Positions 5,471-58,218 of a DNA stretch of 64,000 nucleotides are shown here, in pieces. The DNA lies in assembly GCA_001730015.1 (NCBI GenBank), contig MDLA01000168.1, forward strand, positions 35,741 to 99,740, written 5' to 3'. Position 1 is the first letter of the stretch, and each line of letters opens with the position of its first letter. The DNA is from Chromatiales bacterium (ex Bugula neritina AB1) (lineage in GTDB: Bacteria; Pseudomonadota; Gammaproteobacteria; Granulosicoccales; Granulosicoccaceae). The translations under genes were made by a program, and so were the position numbers. The notes beneath the pieces are model-generated. The model was not told where the DNA came from, did no database searches, and was given only the letters and a program-made list of their open reading frames with translations.

Positions 5471-6853
5471 TCATCTGCCCGGCATCTGCAAATATTCATT
5501 TGCATAACGCTGGCCCAGTTGCCGCAGCCCCTCGGCTGAGAAATGGGAGCCATAGGGGTCATCCGCGCGCTTTGGCAAATCCGTAGCAGCAACACAACCG
5601 GTCAATGGATCTGAATCTGAATTAAGCGCCATTAAACGCCTGTTAACACCCACTGCTCGTCGCGTTTCGCCACAGATAAACGCAGTATCCGATCGCCCCC
5701 ACAACTCATTACGTATATTTTTAATCAAAGCGTTTAGTTTGATTGCGTAATAATTGCGATACTCATCGGAATCTTTAGATGTGTATCCTGTGGCACCGGC
5801 ATCAGCTGTCCCTTCGTACAACCAGTCATTCTCGCCCTGTTGCCACAACACTGCATCAACACTGTACTTGTGTGGCAAATGCTTAAGCGCACGCTCTACC
5901 TTGTTACCTAGAATTCTATAAAAGTCGGAATTGTAGTCCCAGTGTGCGATGCCTTTGCCAGAGGCTGCTGCCACAATGATAGCTGGCACCCGGTTGGATC
6001 TGGAACGCGCCAGCGATTTTCCGAAATGAAACGCAAAACTGTTGTTGGGCTCACGATCGGGAGTTGTCGTGGAGAAATTTCCAGGCGCTCCGTGAAGGTC
6101 CCACGCCTGGTGTAGATCGGCAATCTGCCAGCCGTTATCAGTAAACGCAAACACCCGCTCATGGGGCTGATCCAGTTTTGCATCGAAGCTGGTCCGCGCT
6201 GCAGCCACATTAGACTGACCGGTCACCAGAATAACATCGGTTATATCTTCAAGGGTCAGCTCATCACCCTTCTTTTTTCCCGTCACTACCACGCAGGTAT
6301 TGCCGTTTTCCCAACCATAGCCATCACCATCCGGGTCACTGCCAATTAAGCTGCAATCAGGAAACTCAGTAGTGCGCTGCACAATACAGATACGTTCGTT
6401 CTCAATTCCGAAACCGTCACCATCCGGATCTGTAATCCCTGGAGAACACAGCGGATGATCCTTCCGGGTACCGTCAGCGATGCAAGTCTTGTTGTCTTCC
6501 CAGCCATATCCGTCACCATCGGGATCACTCGTATCATGGACGCAAGGCGGATGTCCATCTGTTTTGGTAAGTACTACCAGGCAGGTTTGATTATTTTCCC
6601 AGCCATACCCATCGCCGTCGGGGTCACTGCGCCTGGACTCACAATCCGGATAGTTGAGTGGTTCCCGATCGTGCTCCGAGCCCTGAACGAGGCATGTTTG
6701 ATTATTTTCCCAACCCCATCCATCCGAATTGGTGTCCGAATCGGTGAATTGACAATAGGGATAAACCGGCTCGGCATGGGCACGGCAGACCAGCGCAAAA
6801 CAAACACACACAACTACATAGAAAAAAAGCCCAGAGACATGACCAGCAGACAA
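5471..6853 (-). CDS. secreted SASA/DUF303-type (sialate O-acetylesterase-like, SGNH-fold) carbohydrate esterase with five N-terminal Cys-bracketed repeats
   Basis: A signal peptide MSAGHVSGLFFYVVVCVCFALVCRAHA is followed by 5 x C-x19-C repeats. The catalytic part carries VILVTGQSN and WQQGENDW, the GQSN and QGE blocks of the SASA family. Confidence 0.75.
   Translation of the reverse strand: MSAGHVSGLFFYVVVCVCFALVCRAHAEPVYPYCQFTDSDTNSDGWGWENNQTCLVQGSEHDREPLNYPDCESRRSDPDGDGYGWENNQTCLVVLTKTDGHPPCVHDTSDPDGDGYGWEDNKTCIADGTRKDHPLCSPGITDPDGDGFGIENERICIVQRTTEFPDCSLIGSDPDGDGYGWENGNTCVVVTGKKKGDELTLEDITDVILVTGQSNVAAARTSFDAKLDQPHERVFAFTDNGWQIADLHQAWDLHGAPGNFSTTTPDREPNNSFAFHFGKSLARSRSNRVPAIIVAAASGKGIAHWDYNSDFYRILGNKVERALKHLPHKYSVDAVLWQQGENDWLYEGTADAGATGYTSKDSDEYRNYYAIKLNALIKNIRNELWGRSDTAFICGETRRAVGVNRRLMALNSDSDPLTGCVAATDLPKRADDPYGSHFSAEGLRQLGQRYANEYLQMPGR
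6293..6754 (-). repeat. five tandem coding repeats (31-37 aa period): C-x6-7-D(P/S)DGDG(Y/W/F)G(W/I)E(N/D)-x3-C
   Basis: The repeats run Cys34-Cys54, Cys71-Cys91, Cys104-Cys124, Cys136-Cys156 and Cys167-Cys187 of the 460-aa ORF. Examples are SDPDGDGYGWENNQTC, SDPDGDGYGWEDNKTC, TDPDGDGFGIENERIC and SDPDGDGYGWENGNTC. Confidence 0.85.
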
Positions 6854-49487: not shown

Positions 49488-49813
49488 GGGCCTGTAGCTC
49501 AGTTGGTTAGAGCAGTGGACTCATCAAAATGGTGCGTCTATATTGTAAAATATAGAATGAACGGGATGAATTCAGGGAAACCTTAACAGTCAGGCTGAAG
49601 GCAATCCTGAGCCAAGCCAAAGGTACACCTTTGGAAGGTGCAGAGACTACCTGGGAACTACAGTGTTCTTAATAACAGGCTAGAGCGTCCCGCACCCCAC
49701 CAGCCACAAAGCACACATTGTTGCTGAGGGTGATGAGATAGTCCGCTCCGTACTGAAAAGTTCGGGCAAAGTGAATCCATTGGTCGTAGGTTCAAATCCT
49801 ACCGGGCCCACCA
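49488..49813 (+). tRNA. ileX: tRNA with anticodon CAU (most likely lysidine-dependent tRNA-Ile2, ileX-like), interrupted by a 249-nt intron after anticodon position 36
   Basis: Exon 1 (49488-49524, GGGCCTGTAGCTCAGTTGGTTAGAGCAGTGGACTCAT) joined to exon 2 (49774-49813, AATCCATTGGTCGTAGGTTCAAATCCTACCGGGCCCACCA) folds into a perfect 77-nt cloverleaf with an encoded CCA. The C4:G69 and C5:G68 pairs, the UGGUC variable loop and the location downstream of rpoD match E. coli ileX. Elongator tRNA-Met is not excluded. Confidence 0.85.
49525..49773 (+). ncRNA. group I (IC3-like) self-splicing intron in the tRNA anticodon loop; no ORF
   Basis: Core blocks align with the Azoarcus pre-tRNA-Ile ribozyme as I recall it. 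They are GGGAAACC, the P4 pairing TTCAGGG / TCCTGAG, GAGCCAAGCC, the hairpin CCAAAGG-TACA-CCTTTGG, and AAGGTGCAGAGACTA. A P2-like hairpin TCTATAT / ATATAGA is also present. The insert ends in G (49773), and a 5' GGTG/ATGG segment can pair with the exon CAU. Confidence 0.8.
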
Positions 49814-50141: not shown

Positions 50142-50726
50142 ATGTACCAGGCACAGCCAAAGTCGCCAGATTTCGAACAGCTCTACCGTGAGCTGGAAGC
50201 ACTCCCCGAAAATCAGGTCGGCGAAATAATCAACGGAACGCTGCACGCGAGCCCTCGCCCCTCTGGACCGCACGGACGAGCAGCTTCAGTGATGGGTATG
50301 GACATCGGCACCCCATATGACCGAGGCAGGGGTGGCCCCGGCGGCTGGTGGATCATTTTTGAACCGGAGCTTCACCTGACCGAACAGGTTCTGGTTCCCG
50401 ATATTGCAGGCTGGCACCACGAAACCCTGCCCGAGATCCCGCAAAGCCATCGTTTTACCGTAGCGCCGGACTGGGTCTGTGAAATGCTGTCTCCTTCCAC
50501 CGGTAGAACTGATCGAATCGAGAAGATGCCTATCTATGCCAACGAGGGCGTGAGCCACCTTTGGCTGGTTGACCCGCTGGCACATACACTTGAGACGTTT
50601 GCGCTGCAAAACGGCCGATGGTCTCTGGCAGGCAGTTTCAAAGACAATGATGCTGTATCCATCGCTCCATTCGATGCAATCACACTGGAGCTGACGACGC
50701 TATGGCAAACCAGCGTAAGCAACTAG
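50142..50726 (+). CDS. Uma2-family (DUF820, PD-(D/E)XK-like) endonuclease
   Basis: The 194-aa protein carries ...GEIINGTLHASPRP..., VPDIAGW, APDWVCEMLSPST...DRIEKMPIYANEGVSHLWLVDP and LETF. This layout is typical of Uma2. Confidence 0.75.
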   Translation: MYQAQPKSPDFEQLYRELEALPENQVGEIINGTLHASPRPSGPHGRAASVMGMDIGTPYDRGRGGPGGWWIIFEPELHLTEQVLVPDIAGWHHETLPEIPQSHRFTVAPDWVCEMLSPSTGRTDRIEKMPIYANEGVSHLWLVDPLAHTLETFALQNGRWSLAGSFKDNDAVSIAPFDAITLELTTLWQTSVSN

Positions 50727-51159: not shown

Positions 51160-51678
51160 TTGGCGAACCCGCGAAATGACCTATCGTATGTTAGGGCAAC
51201 GAAACCGCTACGCGGGTTATCGAGTCTATGTGGCACAGGAAGTGAGGAAGAGTTCCTGCAGTTTTACAGCAAAGGAAATCTGGCTGGGATACTAGGAGGG
51301 AAAACGTTCCGCGATGATATAAAAGAAAGGGAAGATGAGCTACGGGTGTCAGGCGACCTGTCTGAGGAATTGTCGGAACGACCAGACTTGAAGTCAATAG
51401 TCTCAGCAGTAGCCAAAGTATTTAAAACGACACAAGTCGAAATAGTAAAAAATGAACGAGGGCGGAATCCACAAGTGACAATTGCACGGCAACTCGCGGT
51501 CTACTGCTGCCAGCAACTCGGGGATCTGTCCTTGCGTGAAATAGCAGAGAATTTCAATTTCACCAATCAGGGCAGTGTATCAGGAGCGATAACAGCGACG
51601 AAACGACGTCTGGAGAACGGGGAATTAACCAGCGACTATAGGAAGCTGGAAAAATTGTTTGATAAGGCATCTAAATAG
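51160..51678 (+). pseudogene. C-terminal part of an IS200/Y1-transposase-like protein with a DnaA_C-type HTH (N-terminal catalytic domain missing)
   Basis: ERPDLKSIVSAVAKVFKTTQVEIVKNERGRNPQVTIARQLAVYCCQQLGDLSLREIAENFNFTNQGSVSGAI matches the Bac_DnaA_C-like tail of REP-associated or IS200-like transposase-family proteins. No Y1 domain lies upstream. Confidence 0.45.
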
Positions 51679-52330
51679 CGTAATAGGATTGACCCCTTAT
51701 ACATTTTCCAAAAATATCTCTAATACTGTAATTTATTCCATGCTCACCAAATGAATCACGTTCACTATTGAGTAGCCTAACACTTGGGAAACGAACTCCA
51801 GAGAACCCGGCTTCTTGCGCATCCATGCCTAGAGCATCGGTATAAGAATTTCCCCCAGAAGCCGCACTTAATAAGAAACGAAATAGAGATATATGATCAA
51901 TATCATGATGAAAATCGATTTGAAGACTACCTCTTGAAAGAATTTGATAGAGTGTTGGTCCGAACGTAAAATCACATAATCCAGAGTGTTCAATATCACA
52001 ACTTAGTAATATTTTATCGTCCCATACTGAGAGGGATTCGTTTTCAGTAGGTAGTTCCTTTCGGTCGGAGTCATAGTAACAAATTTCTGCTATCGCGCCA
52101 TCAACCGTATTTGAAAAGAAAAATCCCGAAAAACTTCCACGAGGTGCAAATCTATACTGCGCACTCCAAGTTCGATACGATTCGATAAAGTTCAGATAAA
52201 ACCGTTCTGGTGCGCTTTCAAAGTGTTGCGCACTATGAAATCGATAACGTTTATCTGTACTAGTGCATAATTTGGTATTTTTTTTGATTTTTTTTAGTTC
52301 ACTTGAGATCGGGCTATTATTGATTTTCAT
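51671..52330 (-). CDS. RES-domain protein (NAD+-targeting toxin family) without an adjacent Xre/ParS-type antitoxin
   Basis: YRFAPRGSFSGFFFSNTVDGAIAEICYY fits the R...G...Y/F.S....A..E block. GFSGVRFPSVR...GINYSI fits the G..G..(V/F)PS....N block. The coding sequence is AT-rich and its 3' end overlaps the convergent stump at 51160..51678 by 8 nt. Confidence 0.55.
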   Translation of the reverse strand: MKINNSPISSELKKIKKNTKLCTSTDKRYRFHSAQHFESAPERFYLNFIESYRTWSAQYRFAPRGSFSGFFFSNTVDGAIAEICYYDSDRKELPTENESLSVWDDKILLSCDIEHSGLCDFTFGPTLYQILSRGSLQIDFHHDIDHISLFRFLLSAASGGNSYTDALGMDAQEAGFSGVRFPSVRLLNSERDSFGEHGINYSIRDIFGKCIRGQSYYAI

Positions 52331-53051: not shown

Positions 53052-53819
53052 CTACGTCTCAAGCTCCAAATCAGCCATGGAGAACTCTAATATATCTGTT
53101 GATTCCTTCTCTCCTAAGCTAGAGCGTCTGTCAGAGGCAACCAAGGTAAGAGTGTCATTCCCCAGCGCCCAGTCCACCATTCGTAAATAAAAAACCGTTC
53201 CTTGTCTGGCACCTAATATCAGGTCTTCAAGGTCTTCGTCTGAAAGAGAAGCAGAAGTAACAGCTTCAACTAATTGATCCCCATGTGGTAGTGTCTCATG
53301 TTGATGTAAAACAAGGAACTTAGTATTGTCACGATTCATAAAGTCGGCAGATAGAGCTTGTTTTACAGCGGGCTTTGCACACCCATCAGCTATATTTTCT
53401 AAAATCAAAGCAGCCCCTATTCGAATGAAGGGTCTTTCATCTACTACAGAATTAAAGTAGGCATGCCACAGGGAGACATCAAACGGCTCAGGTAATATTT
53501 CTAAATCTAAAGCTCGTAGATCAGAGGCAGCTACCAAGTAGTGTAGTTCTTCTTCATTCGCAAATGAGGTGAAGAATTTGCGTAACTTTCTTTTGCGAGC
53601 CAATTTTGGACTTGCGGCAACTCTGAAGAAGTACCTTTGCACACCCTTTGTCATATGGTACTGAAAAGTCAAATAGCGCTGATAAGATTCAATTTTTGGG
53701 GTATCAGATACCAGATAACCTTCAAGCTTGTCTTTGAACAATTCCTGAGCATTTGTTATCAGTGCCTCAATTTGATTCAAGTATGAATCTGAACTCCACT
53801 GTGTCTTGGCCAATTTCAC
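53052..53819 (-). CDS. heme-oxygenase-like fold protein (Haem_oxygenas_2/HDO-like putative diiron oxidase; inferred)
   Basis: The 255-aa protein looks all-helical. Candidate metal ligands are an ExxH motif (E90..H93 in NEEELHY), E141 (LILENIADG) and HQHETLPHGD (H172, H174, E175, H179, D181). It lies 22 nt downstream of the GNAT gene, which suggests an operon. Confidence 0.5.
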   Translation of the reverse strand: MKLAKTQWSSDSYLNQIEALITNAQELFKDKLEGYLVSDTPKIESYQRYLTFQYHMTKGVQRYFFRVAASPKLARKRKLRKFFTSFANEEELHYLVAASDLRALDLEILPEPFDVSLWHAYFNSVVDERPFIRIGAALILENIADGCAKPAVKQALSADFMNRDNTKFLVLHQHETLPHGDQLVEAVTSASLSDEDLEDLILGARQGTVFYLRMVDWALGNDTLTLVASDRRSSLGEKESTDILEFSMADLELET

Positions 53820-53841
53820 TGCCTCATTCTGAAATACAAGT

Positions 53842-54456
53842 CTAAAGGTATGGCGATCTTATCTGCCTTAGGTGTTCTTTGTCGAGCGCATCAAGGTATA
53901 GCAACACCTGCGGTCCTGCATACTGGTCATGGTACTCCTCAGCTATCTGTCTCCATCCGTATCTGATAAAAAGTGACCTCAACTTTGGCGAAGTATGAAT
54001 CAAACCGTAGGTCCACTCCCGTTTGACGCAATAGTCGAAGCAGAATCTAAAGATGTGTTGTATCGATTTAGCCCCATCCATACTACTACACCTTACGAGG
54101 CGAGACAGAATCACAATGCTGTCCTCGGATTTATCACAAGATGCTTTTTGGGAAACGAAGGCACTAAAATAATCAATGTTGTTTGCAATTGCGACTGGCG
54201 TCAAGCGAAGTGCTGAAAGCAAATTCCCATCTTCGGAAAAAGCTACTATGTGAACAGACTGTGCGTCAGCTTCATCAAACAAGAGTTGGTTGTCATGATC
54301 AGCTGTAGGATATTTCTTTCCTTGCTCTTGAACATATTGTTCGTATCTCAATTTGCCAACACTATCAGGCAATGACAATCCATTTATCACACTCACAGAA
54401 AATCTATTCAAAGCGAAACCCTCTCGACTCTCACAACGCTTATCATTGTCATACAT
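53842..54456 (-). CDS. LuxI/FeeM-like GNAT N-acyltransferase (N-acyl amino acid / acyl-homoserine-lactone synthase superfamily; inferred)
   Basis: The 204-aa protein carries LRYEQYVQEQGKKYP...LLFDEAD...VHIVAFSEDGNLLSALRL. Its C-terminal GLIHTSPKLRSLFIRYGWRQIAEEYHDQYAGPQVLLYLD follows the pattern of Acetyltransf_5/Autoind_synth-type enzymes. Confidence 0.55.
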   Translation of the reverse strand: MYDNDKRCESREGFALNRFSVSVINGLSLPDSVGKLRYEQYVQEQGKKYPTADHDNQLLFDEADAQSVHIVAFSEDGNLLSALRLTPVAIANNIDYFSAFVSQKASCDKSEDSIVILSRLVRCSSMDGAKSIQHIFRFCFDYCVKREWTYGLIHTSPKLRSLFIRYGWRQIAEEYHDQYAGPQVLLYLDALDKEHLRQIRSPYL

Positions 54457-54992: not shown

Positions 54993-57769
54993 TTAGTGGA
55001 AAGTGGGGCCGCTCCGTTTTCGTGATTGTTGGTGTTGTTGTGTCATCCATTCTGACCACAACGGTCCACGCAACTCGGTCGGCGCCATATAGAGTTGAGC
55101 ACGATGCTTGTGACGGGTCATGGAAACGTAGGCCAGATGTTTATCCATGGTTTTGGAGGCCAGCACAAATGTGTGATCGACGCTCGCCCCTTGGCTTTTG
55201 TGAATGGTGGTGGCGTATCCATGATCAAAATCAGCGTAGTGCCTCGGTGAAAAACTCACCAATCGCCCCTCAGCAGCGCCGTCGCTGTCGAGGCACAGTA
55301 ATCTCATCACCGATTGATTCCACCGAGCCAATCATGCCATTGCGAACGTTTAAATCACGATCGTTTTTTGTCAGCAGTAGTCGATCACCCACAGCAATAG
55401 AACGCAGCCCGTGAGCAGTGTTAACCCGATGTTCCTCTTCGAAGTCACCGCGTTGCTGTTTGCCCGAACGAATTGTTTGATTAATCTTGTGTACATCCAC
55501 CCGTCGGTGCGCCAACGCCAGCCGCCGGTGTCGGACGCCGCTCTCTCGTTCATCGGCCAAATAGTCACGAGCCAACGCTTCAATCGCCTGAGCTTGATCA
55601 TCACGACGGTGCACGTCACCATTGGTATCGTAAGCCGCCAGTGCCGCACTGATGTGACCGCGAGCCAGTTGAACAGAGGCTTGTCGTTGCCAGGATGATG
55701 ATTGCCGACGAATTTCACTAAGCTCGGCGGTGTTAACCAGTCGAGTCATATTACGTAGCGGAGTGCCCGCATTTATGGGTTGGAGTTGTTCTGGATCACC
55801 GACGAGCACTAGCTTTGCCCCCGCCGCTGTTACGTGATTGACTACTTCAACCATCTGGTGTGTACCGACCATGCCAGCTTCATCCAGCACCAGCACATCG
55901 CCAGCATTAAGTGTGTGCTTGCCGTTTTTCCAACTATACATCCAGGAAGCTAAGGTTCTGCTGTCAATTCCCGAGGCCGTTTGCAATCCGTCGGCTGCTT
56001 TTCCTGCGATGGCCGCACCGATAACTCGACAACCTTGTTTCGTCCACGCCTGATGAGCCGCTGCCAGCATCGTACTTTTACCCGCACCCGCCAACCCGAC
56101 CACCACACTCAACTGCTGCGCGCCCACAATGTGTCGAATGGCTTGATCTTGTTCATCACTTAGGGATGCACCAACCCGGTTCTGAAGTTGAGAGTTTTGA
56201 TGTGAGATCGCGTCATCAACATGGTGAGAGGCCACGCCGTGGCAGCTATTTCTGTCCATCGCTAGCACCTCTTCACGTAACTTGTCGCTGAGCGCCTGCA
56301 GAGTCCGAGTGGTATACCGAGGGTTTGCATCGTTGGTGACGAGTACCAATTCATCTGACTGCAGGGTTTGTTCTACGGCCTGCTGGAGGGCTACCGGGTA
56401 TTCAATGTAGTGGCCCAGTCTTCGCACAATATCGTTGCGGGTAAAGAACTCATTCTTGTCGCTAATCAACTCCAGAATGGTCTCTGGTGATTGTTGAATT
56501 GTTAGTCGAGCGGATACGGCTACTTCATCAACCGGTAGAATCAGCGGTTGCATCGGGTCGACTTGTAAACTGCGACCCACAGCGTGGTTGAGTGTTTTTT
56601 GCGTAAGTGCATGGCGAAAACGCATAGGTTCCGCCTGGGCCTGCAGAGTTCGGCGCTCGTATAACTGCCTCTGTATAAGGGTTTCTTGTTCTTCGCGATC
56701 TAATTCGTCGAGTTCATCCAGACGCTGCGCTCTTTGTTGCTTCCCAATTGTTTGAGCTTGTCCTGTTACGCGTTGCCACAACGCACGCAACCCATGAGGT
56801 TGATCTATGTCACTTTGTTCAAACGCCGCTGCGCGCCGCTGTTTTTGATTTGTATCAAGATCAGCACGTGCTGCTCGTTGCGCGGTGGCAAGTGTTTTTC
56901 TTTTGGTCTCGAATGCCGCCAAATCGAGATCGATTATCGTGTCGGCGTCCTTGCATTGTATTTGCAAATCATCGCTGGGCTGTGTGTGTAGTAGTGCAAC
57001 TGCCCCAGCCACATTAGGCAAGCTATCGGGCATACCCAAACGCGCCCGAACATCTTTGGCTTTTGCGCCCAGCCAGCGCGACAATGCGTAAACTTCTCCA
57101 AATCGGTCTACAGCAACATGACCACGTCGATCCCCTTTAGCCAGAATGAAACCTCGCTCTTTTAGAGCATGGGCAAACGCCGTTCGGGAATCTGAGGCCT
57201 CCCAGCAGCTACGAAATGACTTTTTTTAGCTCTTGTGGATTTTGCTTTACACGGACTGCCTGTTGTTTCTCACCTTGGCTGAAACTGAGCGGATCGCGTA
57301 AATTTTTATCCTAAAACCCTACTGGCATTTCCCAGCCGTGCTCCAGGTAGAGTTGGCGGGAGATGTCCCGCAGCTTCATCTTAAAGTGCGGAAGATTAAT
57401 GCTCTTCATCGTATCAGCGTCGATCCGTGACCAGACGCAATGCGCGTGGCGACGACCGTACTTTTCATGTAAAACCACCGCACGAGGCTGATCGCTTAGA
57501 CCCAGTTTGCTTTCGATACTCGAAAGGGTAGCTTTGAAAACATCTATTTGGACGTTAGCGCTCTCTGGCGGGTTCAGACTGAGTGAAAACAGAAATTGCT
57601 GACACTTAGTACCTCTCGATACTGCGTGCGCCTCTTTGAATGCGTCTGGAAGATTGTCGGAGACAAACCCGCGCAACTGGTGAACGGTCACATGATCATT
57701 GTCATCCGTATTGAGCAGATGACGGGCAAGCTGGCTGCCGCCACCACGCTGCGATCCTTTTAAGATCAT
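54993..57769 (-). pseudogene. relaxase (N-terminal nuclease domain) fused to a TraA/RecD-like P-loop helicase, disrupted at three sites
   Basis: The pieces are 57769-57311 (MILKGSQRGGG...HEKYGRRHAHCVWSRID), 57310-57085, 57084-55270 (VVGLAGAGKSTML...VLVLDEAGMV) and 55331-54993 (DHGYATTIHKSQGASVD...YVSMTRH). The lesions are an in-frame TAG at 57311-57313, a 1-nt frame change at the T7 run 57221-57227, and a 1-nt frame change near 55302. Confidence 0.8.
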
Positions 57770-58218
57770 GATAGGGAGGATTTGTCGCGCAGACCGACGG
57801 CGGTGACCAGTGTGACGCGCATCTCCTGTATGTAGCGATACGCCTCCTCAATCTGTTCCAGTACCTCGGTGTTGACAATCAACGTGCCGCAATTGGCGTG
57901 ATGTGCAAGTTGGTTGAGGTTGTTGGCGATACGCGTTTGACCGAGTGGGGCCAGTAATTTCGCAAAGGCTTGCTGGTCCGCTACAGGCTGGTACCTCGCG
58001 CGACTTCGTTTTGATCGCTGCGAGCCAAACAGGCATTCGCGAATGTAGGCACTGACAGGTTGACCGGCCGATAGCTTTTTCAGCTGAGCGCGTTCCTCGT
58101 CTGTCACACGTAGTGTGATCGGTGAGGAGGCAATCCTTCGGCGAGCCTGCGGCTTTACGCTTTCAGAAAATGTGGCGTGTAAGCTTGAGGATTGTGCCTT
58201 TTTCGTCTCGGAAGTCAC
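57766..58218 (-). CDS. mobC: MobC-family relaxosome accessory protein
   Basis: RVTDEERAQLKKLS (RHH-like) and IANNLNQLAHHAN (the MobC NLNQ block) are present. Its stop overlaps the relaxase start by 4 nt. Confidence 0.8.
   Translation of the reverse strand: MTSETKKAQSSSLHATFSESVKPQARRRIASSPITLRVTDEERAQLKKLSAGQPVSAYIRECLFGSQRSKRSRARYQPVADQQAFAKLLAPLGQTRIANNLNQLAHHANCGTLIVNTEVLEQIEEAYRYIQEMRVTLVTAVGLRDKSSLS

Follow-up and report, generated by a model that had tools for sequence, protein, structure and literature searches.

A predicted N-acyl amide synthase paired with a putative heme-oxygenase-like dimetal oxidase in a two-gene cassette on a tRNA-linked island of Chromatiales bacterium (ex Bugula neritina AB1)

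What might two small adjacent genes, one for an acyltransferase and the other for an all-helical putative oxidase, be doing together on a low-GC island in the genome of Chromatiales bacterium (ex Bugula neritina AB1)? The pair lies on the minus strand of a 64,000-nucleotide stretch of contig MDLA01000168.1 (assembly GCA_001730015.1, positions 35,741 to 99,740 of the forward strand; hereafter the window). A first-pass annotation made from the sequence alone had described it as a cassette joining an acyltransferase of the GNAT type, resembling LuxI and FeeM, to a heme-oxygenase-like (HO-like) putative diiron oxidase, with an N-acylated amine or amino acid that is then oxidatively tailored as a plausible product. 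Following this up computationally, we find two real genes whose association recurs across about eight phyla and, by inference, we give roughly even chances to the proposal that they form a two-enzyme synthase for an oxidised N-acyl amine or amino acid acting as a signal.

As first described, the two open reading frames (ORFs; Table 1) are intact, AT-rich and 22 nt apart. The acyltransferase ORF (hereafter the GNAT) starts with ATG and encodes 204 amino acids, and the HO-like ORF (hereafter the oxidase) starts with GTG and encodes 255. Their GC contents are 42.8% and 41.7%, and their GC contents at third codon positions (GC3) 43% and 37%, respectively, against 52-55% and 50-60% for the nearby rpoD, tkt and pgk genes, which marks the composition of the cassette as foreign. 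Since the homologues are strong matches (E=1e-87 for the GNAT and E=5e-119 for the oxidase) and the ratio of non-synonymous to synonymous substitution rates (dN/dS) against the closest pair, in the metagenomic locus L001, is low (0.09 and 0.06, respectively) and indicates purifying selection, sequence comparison identifies both as real genes rather than chance ORFs. Both are full length relative to their homologues, with every conserved residue intact.

To which family of acyltransferases does the GNAT belong? All the motifs by which it had been recognised (LRYEQYV, FDEAD, ALRL, GLIHTSPKLRSLFIRYGW and GPQVLLYLD) are present in the 204-residue protein, which scores 36.6 bits against the Pfam family FeeM (PF21926; gathering cutoff 27), with residues 33-188 aligned to profile positions 2-157 of 158. 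The two families initially put forward for it fared less well: the match to PF13444 (Acetyltransf_5) is slightly below cutoff (20.5 bits against 22.4), and PF00765 (LuxI, Autoind_synth) gives no match at E<=1. The protein does not, on the other hand, fall into an unrelated GNAT clade, as hmmscan returned no aminoglycoside, ribosomal or other GNAT acetyltransferase family, and its NCBIfam matches, to an exosortase-associated acyltransferase and to OlsB, are weak only. A word-indexed homology search with the GNAT yielded merely 2-4 proteins, even by profile, and partner GNATs were therefore recovered from the DNA of oxidase loci by local hidden Markov models (HMMs). Among 35 such oxidase-linked GNATs, FeeM was matched by 25 and Autoind_synth by none (E<0.01).

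A family profile built from these 35 proteins and run against all PDB sequences had N-acyl-homoserine lactone (AHL) synthases as its top matches (RpaI, E=3.8e-10, then TofI, BjaI and MesI) and did not reach FeeM at E<=1. Foldseek, applied to a low-confidence model of the GNAT, placed MesI, TofI, BjaI and FeeM at the top, with template modelling (TM) scores below 0.5. The motifs LRY..Y, D..D, R and SR align with counterparts in AHL synthases; when the profile is aligned to RpaI and TofI, these are the equivalents of R37, Y41, D61/D64, R84 and S118-R119. LuxI-family proteins conserve N-terminal Arg, Phe, Trp, Asp, Asp and Arg residues plus Glu-x-Ser-Arg. While we take R37, D64, R84 and S118-R119 to correspond to conserved LuxI-family positions, the columns aligned with RpaI and TofI contain nothing that corresponds to the LuxI Trp or to the Glu preceding SR. 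Because the FeeM threshold is passed and the best profile matches are to AHL synthases, we place the GNAT in the FeeM/LuxI clade of acyl carrier protein (ACP)- or coenzyme A (CoA)-dependent small-amine N-acyltransferases, with its activity predicted from this placement; by its Pfam score it is a FeeM-family member, and not demonstrably a LuxI-family member.

The same matches raise an alternative, namely that the GNAT is a genuine, if divergent, AHL synthase of the LuxI type that uses S-adenosylmethionine (SAM) and acyl-CoA, with the oxidase making or modifying an unusual acyl group or the AHL itself. The best solved relatives found by the profile (the CoA-dependent RpaI, BjaI and MesI, together with TofI), its failure to reach FeeM, the leading position of MesI in the search with the low-confidence model and the presumed LuxI-family roles of the aligned residues all point this way, whereas the complete lack of PF00765 matches among partner GNATs, most of which match FeeM, and the missing Trp and Glu point away from it. 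Taken with the evidence from neighbouring regulators described below, we regard this alternative as unlikely.

Is the second protein a credible oxidase? Its AlphaFold model, built from 53 sequences, is all-helical and confident (predicted local distance difference test score, pLDDT, 90.6; predicted TM score, pTM, 0.88), and Foldseek relates it with probability 1.00 to 3dde, AetD, CADD, UndA and TenA, in agreement with the HO-like fold expected at the outset. The best match is 3dde (TM 0.67-0.78), followed by AetD, TenA proteins, CADD and UndA (TM 0.6-0.73 on the target for the last two), while TenA, PqqC and canonical heme oxygenase are only weaker, fold-level neighbours (E>=0.01), and the protein has no match to PF03070 or to heme-oxygenase families at E<=1. 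The sole solved protein with significant sequence similarity to it is also 3dde (E=4e-5 to 5e-6); at the sequence level it resembles none of the characterised heme-oxygenase-like diiron oxidases/oxygenases (HDOs). The family PF14518, proposed at first pass, is carried by relatives and not by the window protein: many of its at least 264 homologues, including many at about 55% identity, have precomputed PF14518 matches, some are annotated as "iron-containing redox enzyme family protein", and the orthologue from the metagenomic locus L004 (74% identical) reaches 21.7 bits where the cutoff is 28.9.

For the ligand residues, we aligned the oxidases of 56 non-redundant loci from about eight phyla together with a paralogue from L001 and a natural fusion protein, P0132 (both described below), and counted residues over the 56 or 57 sequences covering each site. 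E90 is kept in 55, H93 in 56, E141 in 55, H172 and H174 in 55 each, E175 in 52 and H179 in 54, and Y46, R48, H55, R80, E89, E91, D100 and R133 are invariant wherever aligned. The cluster on the third core helix reads H172-Q-H174-E175-T-L-P-H179-G-D181. Thus, of the ligand set originally suggested, E90/H93, E141, H172 and H179 are almost invariant, whereas D181 is not conserved, and the carboxylate of alpha3 is instead E175. The family's E(E)xxH, E141 and H172...H179 align with EExxH, E and H-x3-D-x2-H in 3dde, and the candidate ligands E90, H93, E141, H172, E175 and H179 (plus H174) make up the E-H-E-H-E-H pattern of HDOs on three helices; a six-residue E-H-X-H-D/E-H motif on core helices alpha1-alpha3 is found in about 85% of HDO groups (PMC11363339). 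The near-invariance of the proposed ligands across phyla sets the protein apart from an ordinary TenA, PqqC or heme oxygenase, an identity that would have counted against the first-pass annotation. By predicted fold and ligand motif it is a putative HDO with a predicted metal site. When 1.84 billion cluster representatives were searched exhaustively with the family profile, only 242 scored at E<=1e-3, and a mere 55 reached E<=1e-30. The family is thus compact, and we take it to be a new, cross-phylum HDO subfamily.

Some members have diverged. Directly downstream of the pair in L001 lies a second HO-like paralogue (L001:1539-2210; about 42% identity, with E175N, H119K and R213Q), of which the window has no counterpart. 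Several candidate metal ligands have been lost in L041 (E90D, H93K, H172Q and H179P), in P0127 (H172N, H174D and H179S) and in L033; L041 and L033 are also without a linked GNAT.

If the two enzymes share a pathway, their genes would be expected to travel together, and the survey of co-occurrence called for by the first-pass annotation bears this out. In the oxidase's three closest metagenomic relatives, an orthologue of the window GNAT lies directly upstream (oxidase and GNAT identities to the window of 76% and 72% in L001, 74% and 56% in L004, and 65% and 47% in L002). Another 51 loci came from a pattern scan in which each GTDB species was represented by one genome; their ORFs were called locally and searched with the GNAT HMMs plus Pfam, giving 56 non-redundant loci with the window included. 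Of the 56, 44 have a GNAT, as a gene or as a domain, linked to the oxidase, and these span about eight phyla and over 40 species: the GNAT is directly upstream in 34, directly downstream in 2, a domain of an upstream multidomain gene in 7 and about 1 kb away in 1. A 4-bp overlap of the two genes, or a gap of less than 100 bp between them, is seen in many relatives. The hosts include Alpha-, Beta- and Gammaproteobacteria, Bdellovibrionota, Verrucomicrobiota, Cyanobacteria, Planctomycetota, Rubrobacter and Hydrogenedentes. Moreover, one protein from the representative library (P0132, 439 amino acids, with an N-terminus that may be incomplete) is a single-chain fusion of a FeeM-type GNAT (residues 5-129 or beyond) and the oxidase (residues 185-401), in which all ligand residues are intact; by the Rosetta-stone argument, this natural fusion supports a shared pathway.

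The partners differ in conservation, with the oxidase retaining about 55% identity across Proteobacteria as compared to 20-28% for the GNAT. An oxidase with intact ligands is also found without a linked GNAT in four Verrucomicrobiota-type loci (L047, L045, L043 and L048; e.g. L047:4269-4985 and 5730-6500), which may represent an alternative pathway context. There the oxidase gene is followed by one for a conserved protein of about 256-260 amino acids that matches nothing in Pfam; in L047, the sole one of the four scanned, a SAM-methyltransferase gene lies upstream of the oxidase.

What else accompanies the pair? In 13 loci, alphaproteobacterial wherever the record names a class, it adjoins, in co-directional or divergent orientation, a gene for a protein of 360-390 amino acids that has a GerE/LuxR-type helix-turn-helix (HTH) at its C-terminus and, centrally, a weak similarity to PAS domains. 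The first-pass remark that no LuxR-type receptor is adjacent therefore holds for the window and fails for many homologous loci. Among cultured carriers of the pair, the regulator is adjacent in Methylobacterium terricola, Chenggangzhangella methanolivorans and Reyranella soli, and none was detected beside the pair in Dokdonella fugitiva and Fischerella PCC 9431. Such regulators lend some weight to the AHL-synthase alternative, in which GNAT, oxidase and LuxR-HTH protein would constitute a three-component quorum-sensing circuit like the R1-I1-crotonase circuit of Mesorhizobium, a precedent for a signal synthase that can need a linked third enzyme (PMC10470506), although, unlike LuxR receptors, these regulators have no PF03472 ligand-binding domain.

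Elsewhere the pair is tied to second-messenger domains. Two genomes, one of an Elainella cyanobacterium and one from the Verrucomicrobiaceae, encode a GNAT that continues at its C-terminus into a cyclic nucleotide monophosphate (cNMP)-binding domain (L050:815-1945 and L038:6527-8263), and in L017 a stand-alone cNMP-binding protein (L017:4311-4985) is encoded upstream, in the position it has in the fused loci. In six Bdellovibrionota loci (L036, L037, L042, L046, L056 and L061) the GNAT is an internal domain of a protein of about 1,180-1,200 amino acids arranged as PilZ, GNAT, about 400 uncharacterised residues, GAF and adenylate/guanylate cyclase, the gene for which overlaps the start of the oxidase gene (e.g. 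L046:1429-5031). Fusions of this kind in several phyla would also suit a second-messenger-gated protein acyltransferase, modelled on the mycobacterial cAMP-regulated acetyltransferase, that has the HO-like protein as its target or partner and makes no small molecule. We consider this very improbable, however, given that the GNAT belongs to the FeeM/LuxI clade, the characterised members of which acylate small amines, and that a strictly conserved, catalytic-looking metal site argues for the HO-like partner being an enzyme rather than a substrate.

On the reading that we prefer, both genes would be co-transcribed as one two-enzyme cassette. The GNAT would move an acyl group from acyl-ACP or acyl-CoA to the amino group of an amino-acid-like acceptor, and the oxidase would bind a dinuclear metal through E90, H93, E141, H172, E175 and H179, activate O2 and oxidise the polar, amino-acid-derived head group, either before or after acylation; N-oxygenation, desaturation and oxidative decarboxylation or fragmentation are candidate reactions. 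Recognition of the head group by the oxidase is favoured because conservation is far higher in this protein than in the GNAT, because Arg, Tyr, His and Asn predominate among its invariant non-ligand residues (the polar or charged set R48, R80, R133, R213, Y46, H55 and N142), and because the ligand-intact oxidase also occurs without a GNAT, for example beside the methyltransferase of L047. The product would most likely serve as a signalling molecule, the associations with regulators and second-messenger domains suggesting a signal rather than a bulk lipid. The window copy would then be orphan cargo, lacking a regulator, on a decaying mobilisable island beside tRNA(CAU).

The product could instead be an oxidised lipoamino acid with no signalling role, such as a surfactant, antimicrobial, membrane lipid or hydroxamate-type metal chelator, carried as cargo of a mobile island. 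Known FeeM-type products are antibacterial or surfactant (PMC11959600; PMC7293339), an N-hydroxylated N-acyl-threonine is a siderophore (PMC10616846), and the window copy, on its mobile island, has no regulator. Yet an all-against-all comparison of neighbours across about 56 loci found no transporter, ACP or fatty-acid-activating gene conserved with the pair, and the partners that do recur are transcription regulators and second-messenger domains; we therefore think a non-signal product improbable.

Several observations weigh against the proposed signal synthase. The oxidase itself has no Pfam or NCBIfam match, and none to PF14518 at E<=1. Its alpha3 carboxylate, E175, sits at i+3 (H-x-H-E-x3-H; i, i+3, i+7) where the canonical position is i+4, and confidence in the model is lowest (pLDDT about 66) over the alpha3 segment, which contains an invariant Pro; alpha3 is typically disordered in metal-free HDOs. 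The AlphaFold model of the GNAT is poor (pLDDT 57, from a 4-sequence alignment), and a linked GNAT went undetected in 12 of the 56 loci, two of which are very short contigs. No PF03472 or other recognisable autoinducer-binding domain is present in the regulators of related loci, so that ligand sensing by them is assumed, and tblastn of the window found neither a regulator nor a remnant of one. A promoter and terminator scan of the window was uninformative, with no promoter-like site standing out upstream and no convincing promoter or terminator flanking the pair; given this and the lack of a regulator in the window, expression of the cassette in this genome is uncertain.

How does the pair compare with systems already described? 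The HDOs UndA, CADD, AetD, SznF and BesC (PF14518/PF03070) have in common with the oxidase the HO-like helical fold and the E-H-E-H-E-H pattern, but differ in lacking its H-x-H-E-x3-H spacing and invariant Pro and in that it falls below the PF14518 threshold; we know of no HDO with a conserved FeeM-type partner. The best match in both sequence and structure, 3DDE (Sden_3740 from Shewanella denitrificans, an HO-like structural-genomics protein), is about 20% identical and has the canonical H-x3-D-x2-H spacing. Among AHL systems, the synthases RpaI (6WN0), BjaI (5W8A), MesI (6WNS) and TofI (3P2F) are the GNAT's best profile and Foldseek matches and share its R...Y, D..D, R and SR motifs, and many pair loci resemble these systems in having an adjacent LuxR-family HTH regulator; the differences lie in the GNAT and regulator domains and columns set out above. 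FeeM and the N-acyl amino acid synthases (NAS; PF21926; PDB 2G0B) are like the window GNAT in Pfam threshold and in their size of about 200 amino acids, and FeeM is among the top structural matches of the poor model, although it is the one that the GNAT family profile failed to detect in sequence. The tailoring oxidase of the fee cluster also differs. FeeG and CndG are flavoenzymes that oxidatively decarboxylate N-acyl amino acids (N-acyl-tyrosine in the case of FeeG) to eneamides, and FeeG, being flavin-dependent, was rejected as a precedent for an HO-like partner (PMC11959600).

Closer in its chemistry is the lipothrenin pathway, where the diiron N-oxygenase LitN N-hydroxylates N-acyl-threonine to a hydroxamate (PMC10616846), so that a dinuclear-iron oxygenase tailors an N-acyl amino acid. 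LitN is AurF-like, with a ferritin fold, and not HO-like, however; the amide bond of lipothrenin is not made by a FeeM-type GNAT, and the genes form a large Streptomyces cluster as opposed to a two-gene pair. As the pair occurs in loci of Pirellulaceae, the stieleriacine (N-acyl-dehydrotyrosine) cluster of that family was a promising candidate, but it was set aside, the published cluster consisting of NAS enzymes and a TcdA-like dehydratase with no HO-like enzyme (PMC7293339). In line with the first-pass statement that no described pathway joins these two enzyme types, we found no description of an HO-like enzyme paired with FeeM/NAS or an autoinducer synthase in the full-text literature, the coverage of which was incomplete, making this an absence of evidence only. 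What would be new here is the pairing of a predicted N-acyl amide synthase with a putative HO-like oxidative tailoring partner, together with the new HDO subfamily.

In what setting does the window copy find itself? The cassette lies within roughly 10 kb of low-GC sequence (49.8-59.5 kb), described at first pass as a tRNA-linked island with pseudogenes around the pair, and both parts of that description are correct. GC falls after a tRNA(CAU) gene just downstream of rpoD, and because the island begins directly after this tRNA, which forms its left edge, "tRNA-linked" is apt. ARAGORN detects the gene only after splicing: it called no tRNAs in the unspliced window, inspection of the flanks of a group I intron showed that it splits the anticodon loop, and removal of the intron bases gave a canonical 77-nt tRNA. 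The intron recalls, in our view, the classic intron of Azoarcus tRNA-Ile(CAU). No repeat of the tRNA 3' end was found at the far edge of the island. Next to the pair, a MobA/TraA-type relaxase-helicase gene is a pseudogene, its remains divided among at least three ORFs that lie in different frames. The remaining ORFs on the other side of the pair (Table 1) include the island's first gene, encoding a Uma2-family putative restriction endonuclease, a protein with a DnaA C-terminal-type HTH and, convergent with the latter, a weak RES-domain match for which no partner antitoxin was identified. Three other origins or roles were considered and rejected: a plasmid origin, since PLSDB gave nothing by megablast with the island or by tblastn with the oxidase; an E. 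coli origin, the flanking core genes matching nothing in E. coli genomes; and a defence system, PADLOC being silent for GNAT and oxidase alike.

Table 1. Positions of the cassette and of other island features in the window.
Feature	Position	Strand	Basis
FeeM/LuxI-class GNAT acyltransferase gene (predicted)	53842..54456	-	ORF list of the window, Pfam FeeM score, orthologues in L001/L004/L002, AHL-synthase profile matches, dN/dS
Intergenic spacer, 22 nt	53820..53841	-	GAGG Shine-Dalgarno, 3 nt ahead of the oxidase GTG; read from sequence
HO-like putative dimetal oxidase gene	53052..53819	-	ORF list of the window, AlphaFold2 (AF2) model, Foldseek, ligand conservation, PF14518 in homologues, dN/dS
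tRNA(CAU) gene with group I intron 49525-49773 (249 nt)	49488..49813	+	Rfam RF00028 (49513-49765, 83.6 bits); ARAGORN on spliced sequence
Uma2-family putative restriction endonuclease	50142-50726	+	PADLOC candidate defence family PDC-S03, E=7e-20
172-aa ORF, DnaA C-terminal-type HTH	51160-51678	+	PF08299, E=1e-10
219-aa ORF, weak RES-domain match	51671-52330	-	E=0.001, below cutoff
Degraded mobilisation module	54993..58218	-	Pfam Relaxase, AAA_30, TraI_hel_assoc_N, NikA-like, MobC; ORFs in different frames
NikA/MobC-like gene	57766-58218	-	Pfam
Relaxase N-terminal fragment	57311-57769	-	Pfam Relaxase
TraA-type helicase fragment, AAA_30 core	55270-57084	-	Pfam
Frameshifted C-terminal helicase motif fragment	54993-55331	-	Overlaps the 55270-57084 ORF by 62 nt

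This setting suggests one more alternative, that the cassette has fallen silent or is decaying in this genome, its ORFs intact but its function lost as the regulator and mobilisation genes degraded. The fragmented relaxase, the absence of a regulator from the window and the lack of a convincing promoter or terminator around the pair fit such a history, against which stand two full-length ORFs with all their conserved residues; the low dN/dS also speaks against it, yet reflects past selection and cannot alone rule out recent silencing. We judge it to be very unlikely.

Beyond this genome, it is possible, though on balance doubtful, that the pair is the synthase of a widespread and previously unrecognised class of bacterial signal, an oxidatively modified N-acyl amine, which Alphaproteobacteria would read through the adjacent PAS-like/LuxR-HTH regulators and the synthesis of which Bdellovibrionota, Cyanobacteria and Verrucomicrobiota would gate by cAMP/cGMP or cyclic di-GMP via fused domains. 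If so, this would be a new quorum-sensing-like chemistry resting on a new HDO reaction. The HDO class of enzymes is growing fast and, to our knowledge, each newly characterised subfamily has so far yielded unusual O2 chemistry (N-N bond formation, C-C cleavage, nitrile or olefin formation). The compact, cross-phylum subfamily predicted here comes with an obligate-looking FeeM/LuxI-class partner, and the two genes, which together take up about 1.4 kb, lend themselves to direct tests for a new N-acyl metabolite, possibly a cell-cell signal.

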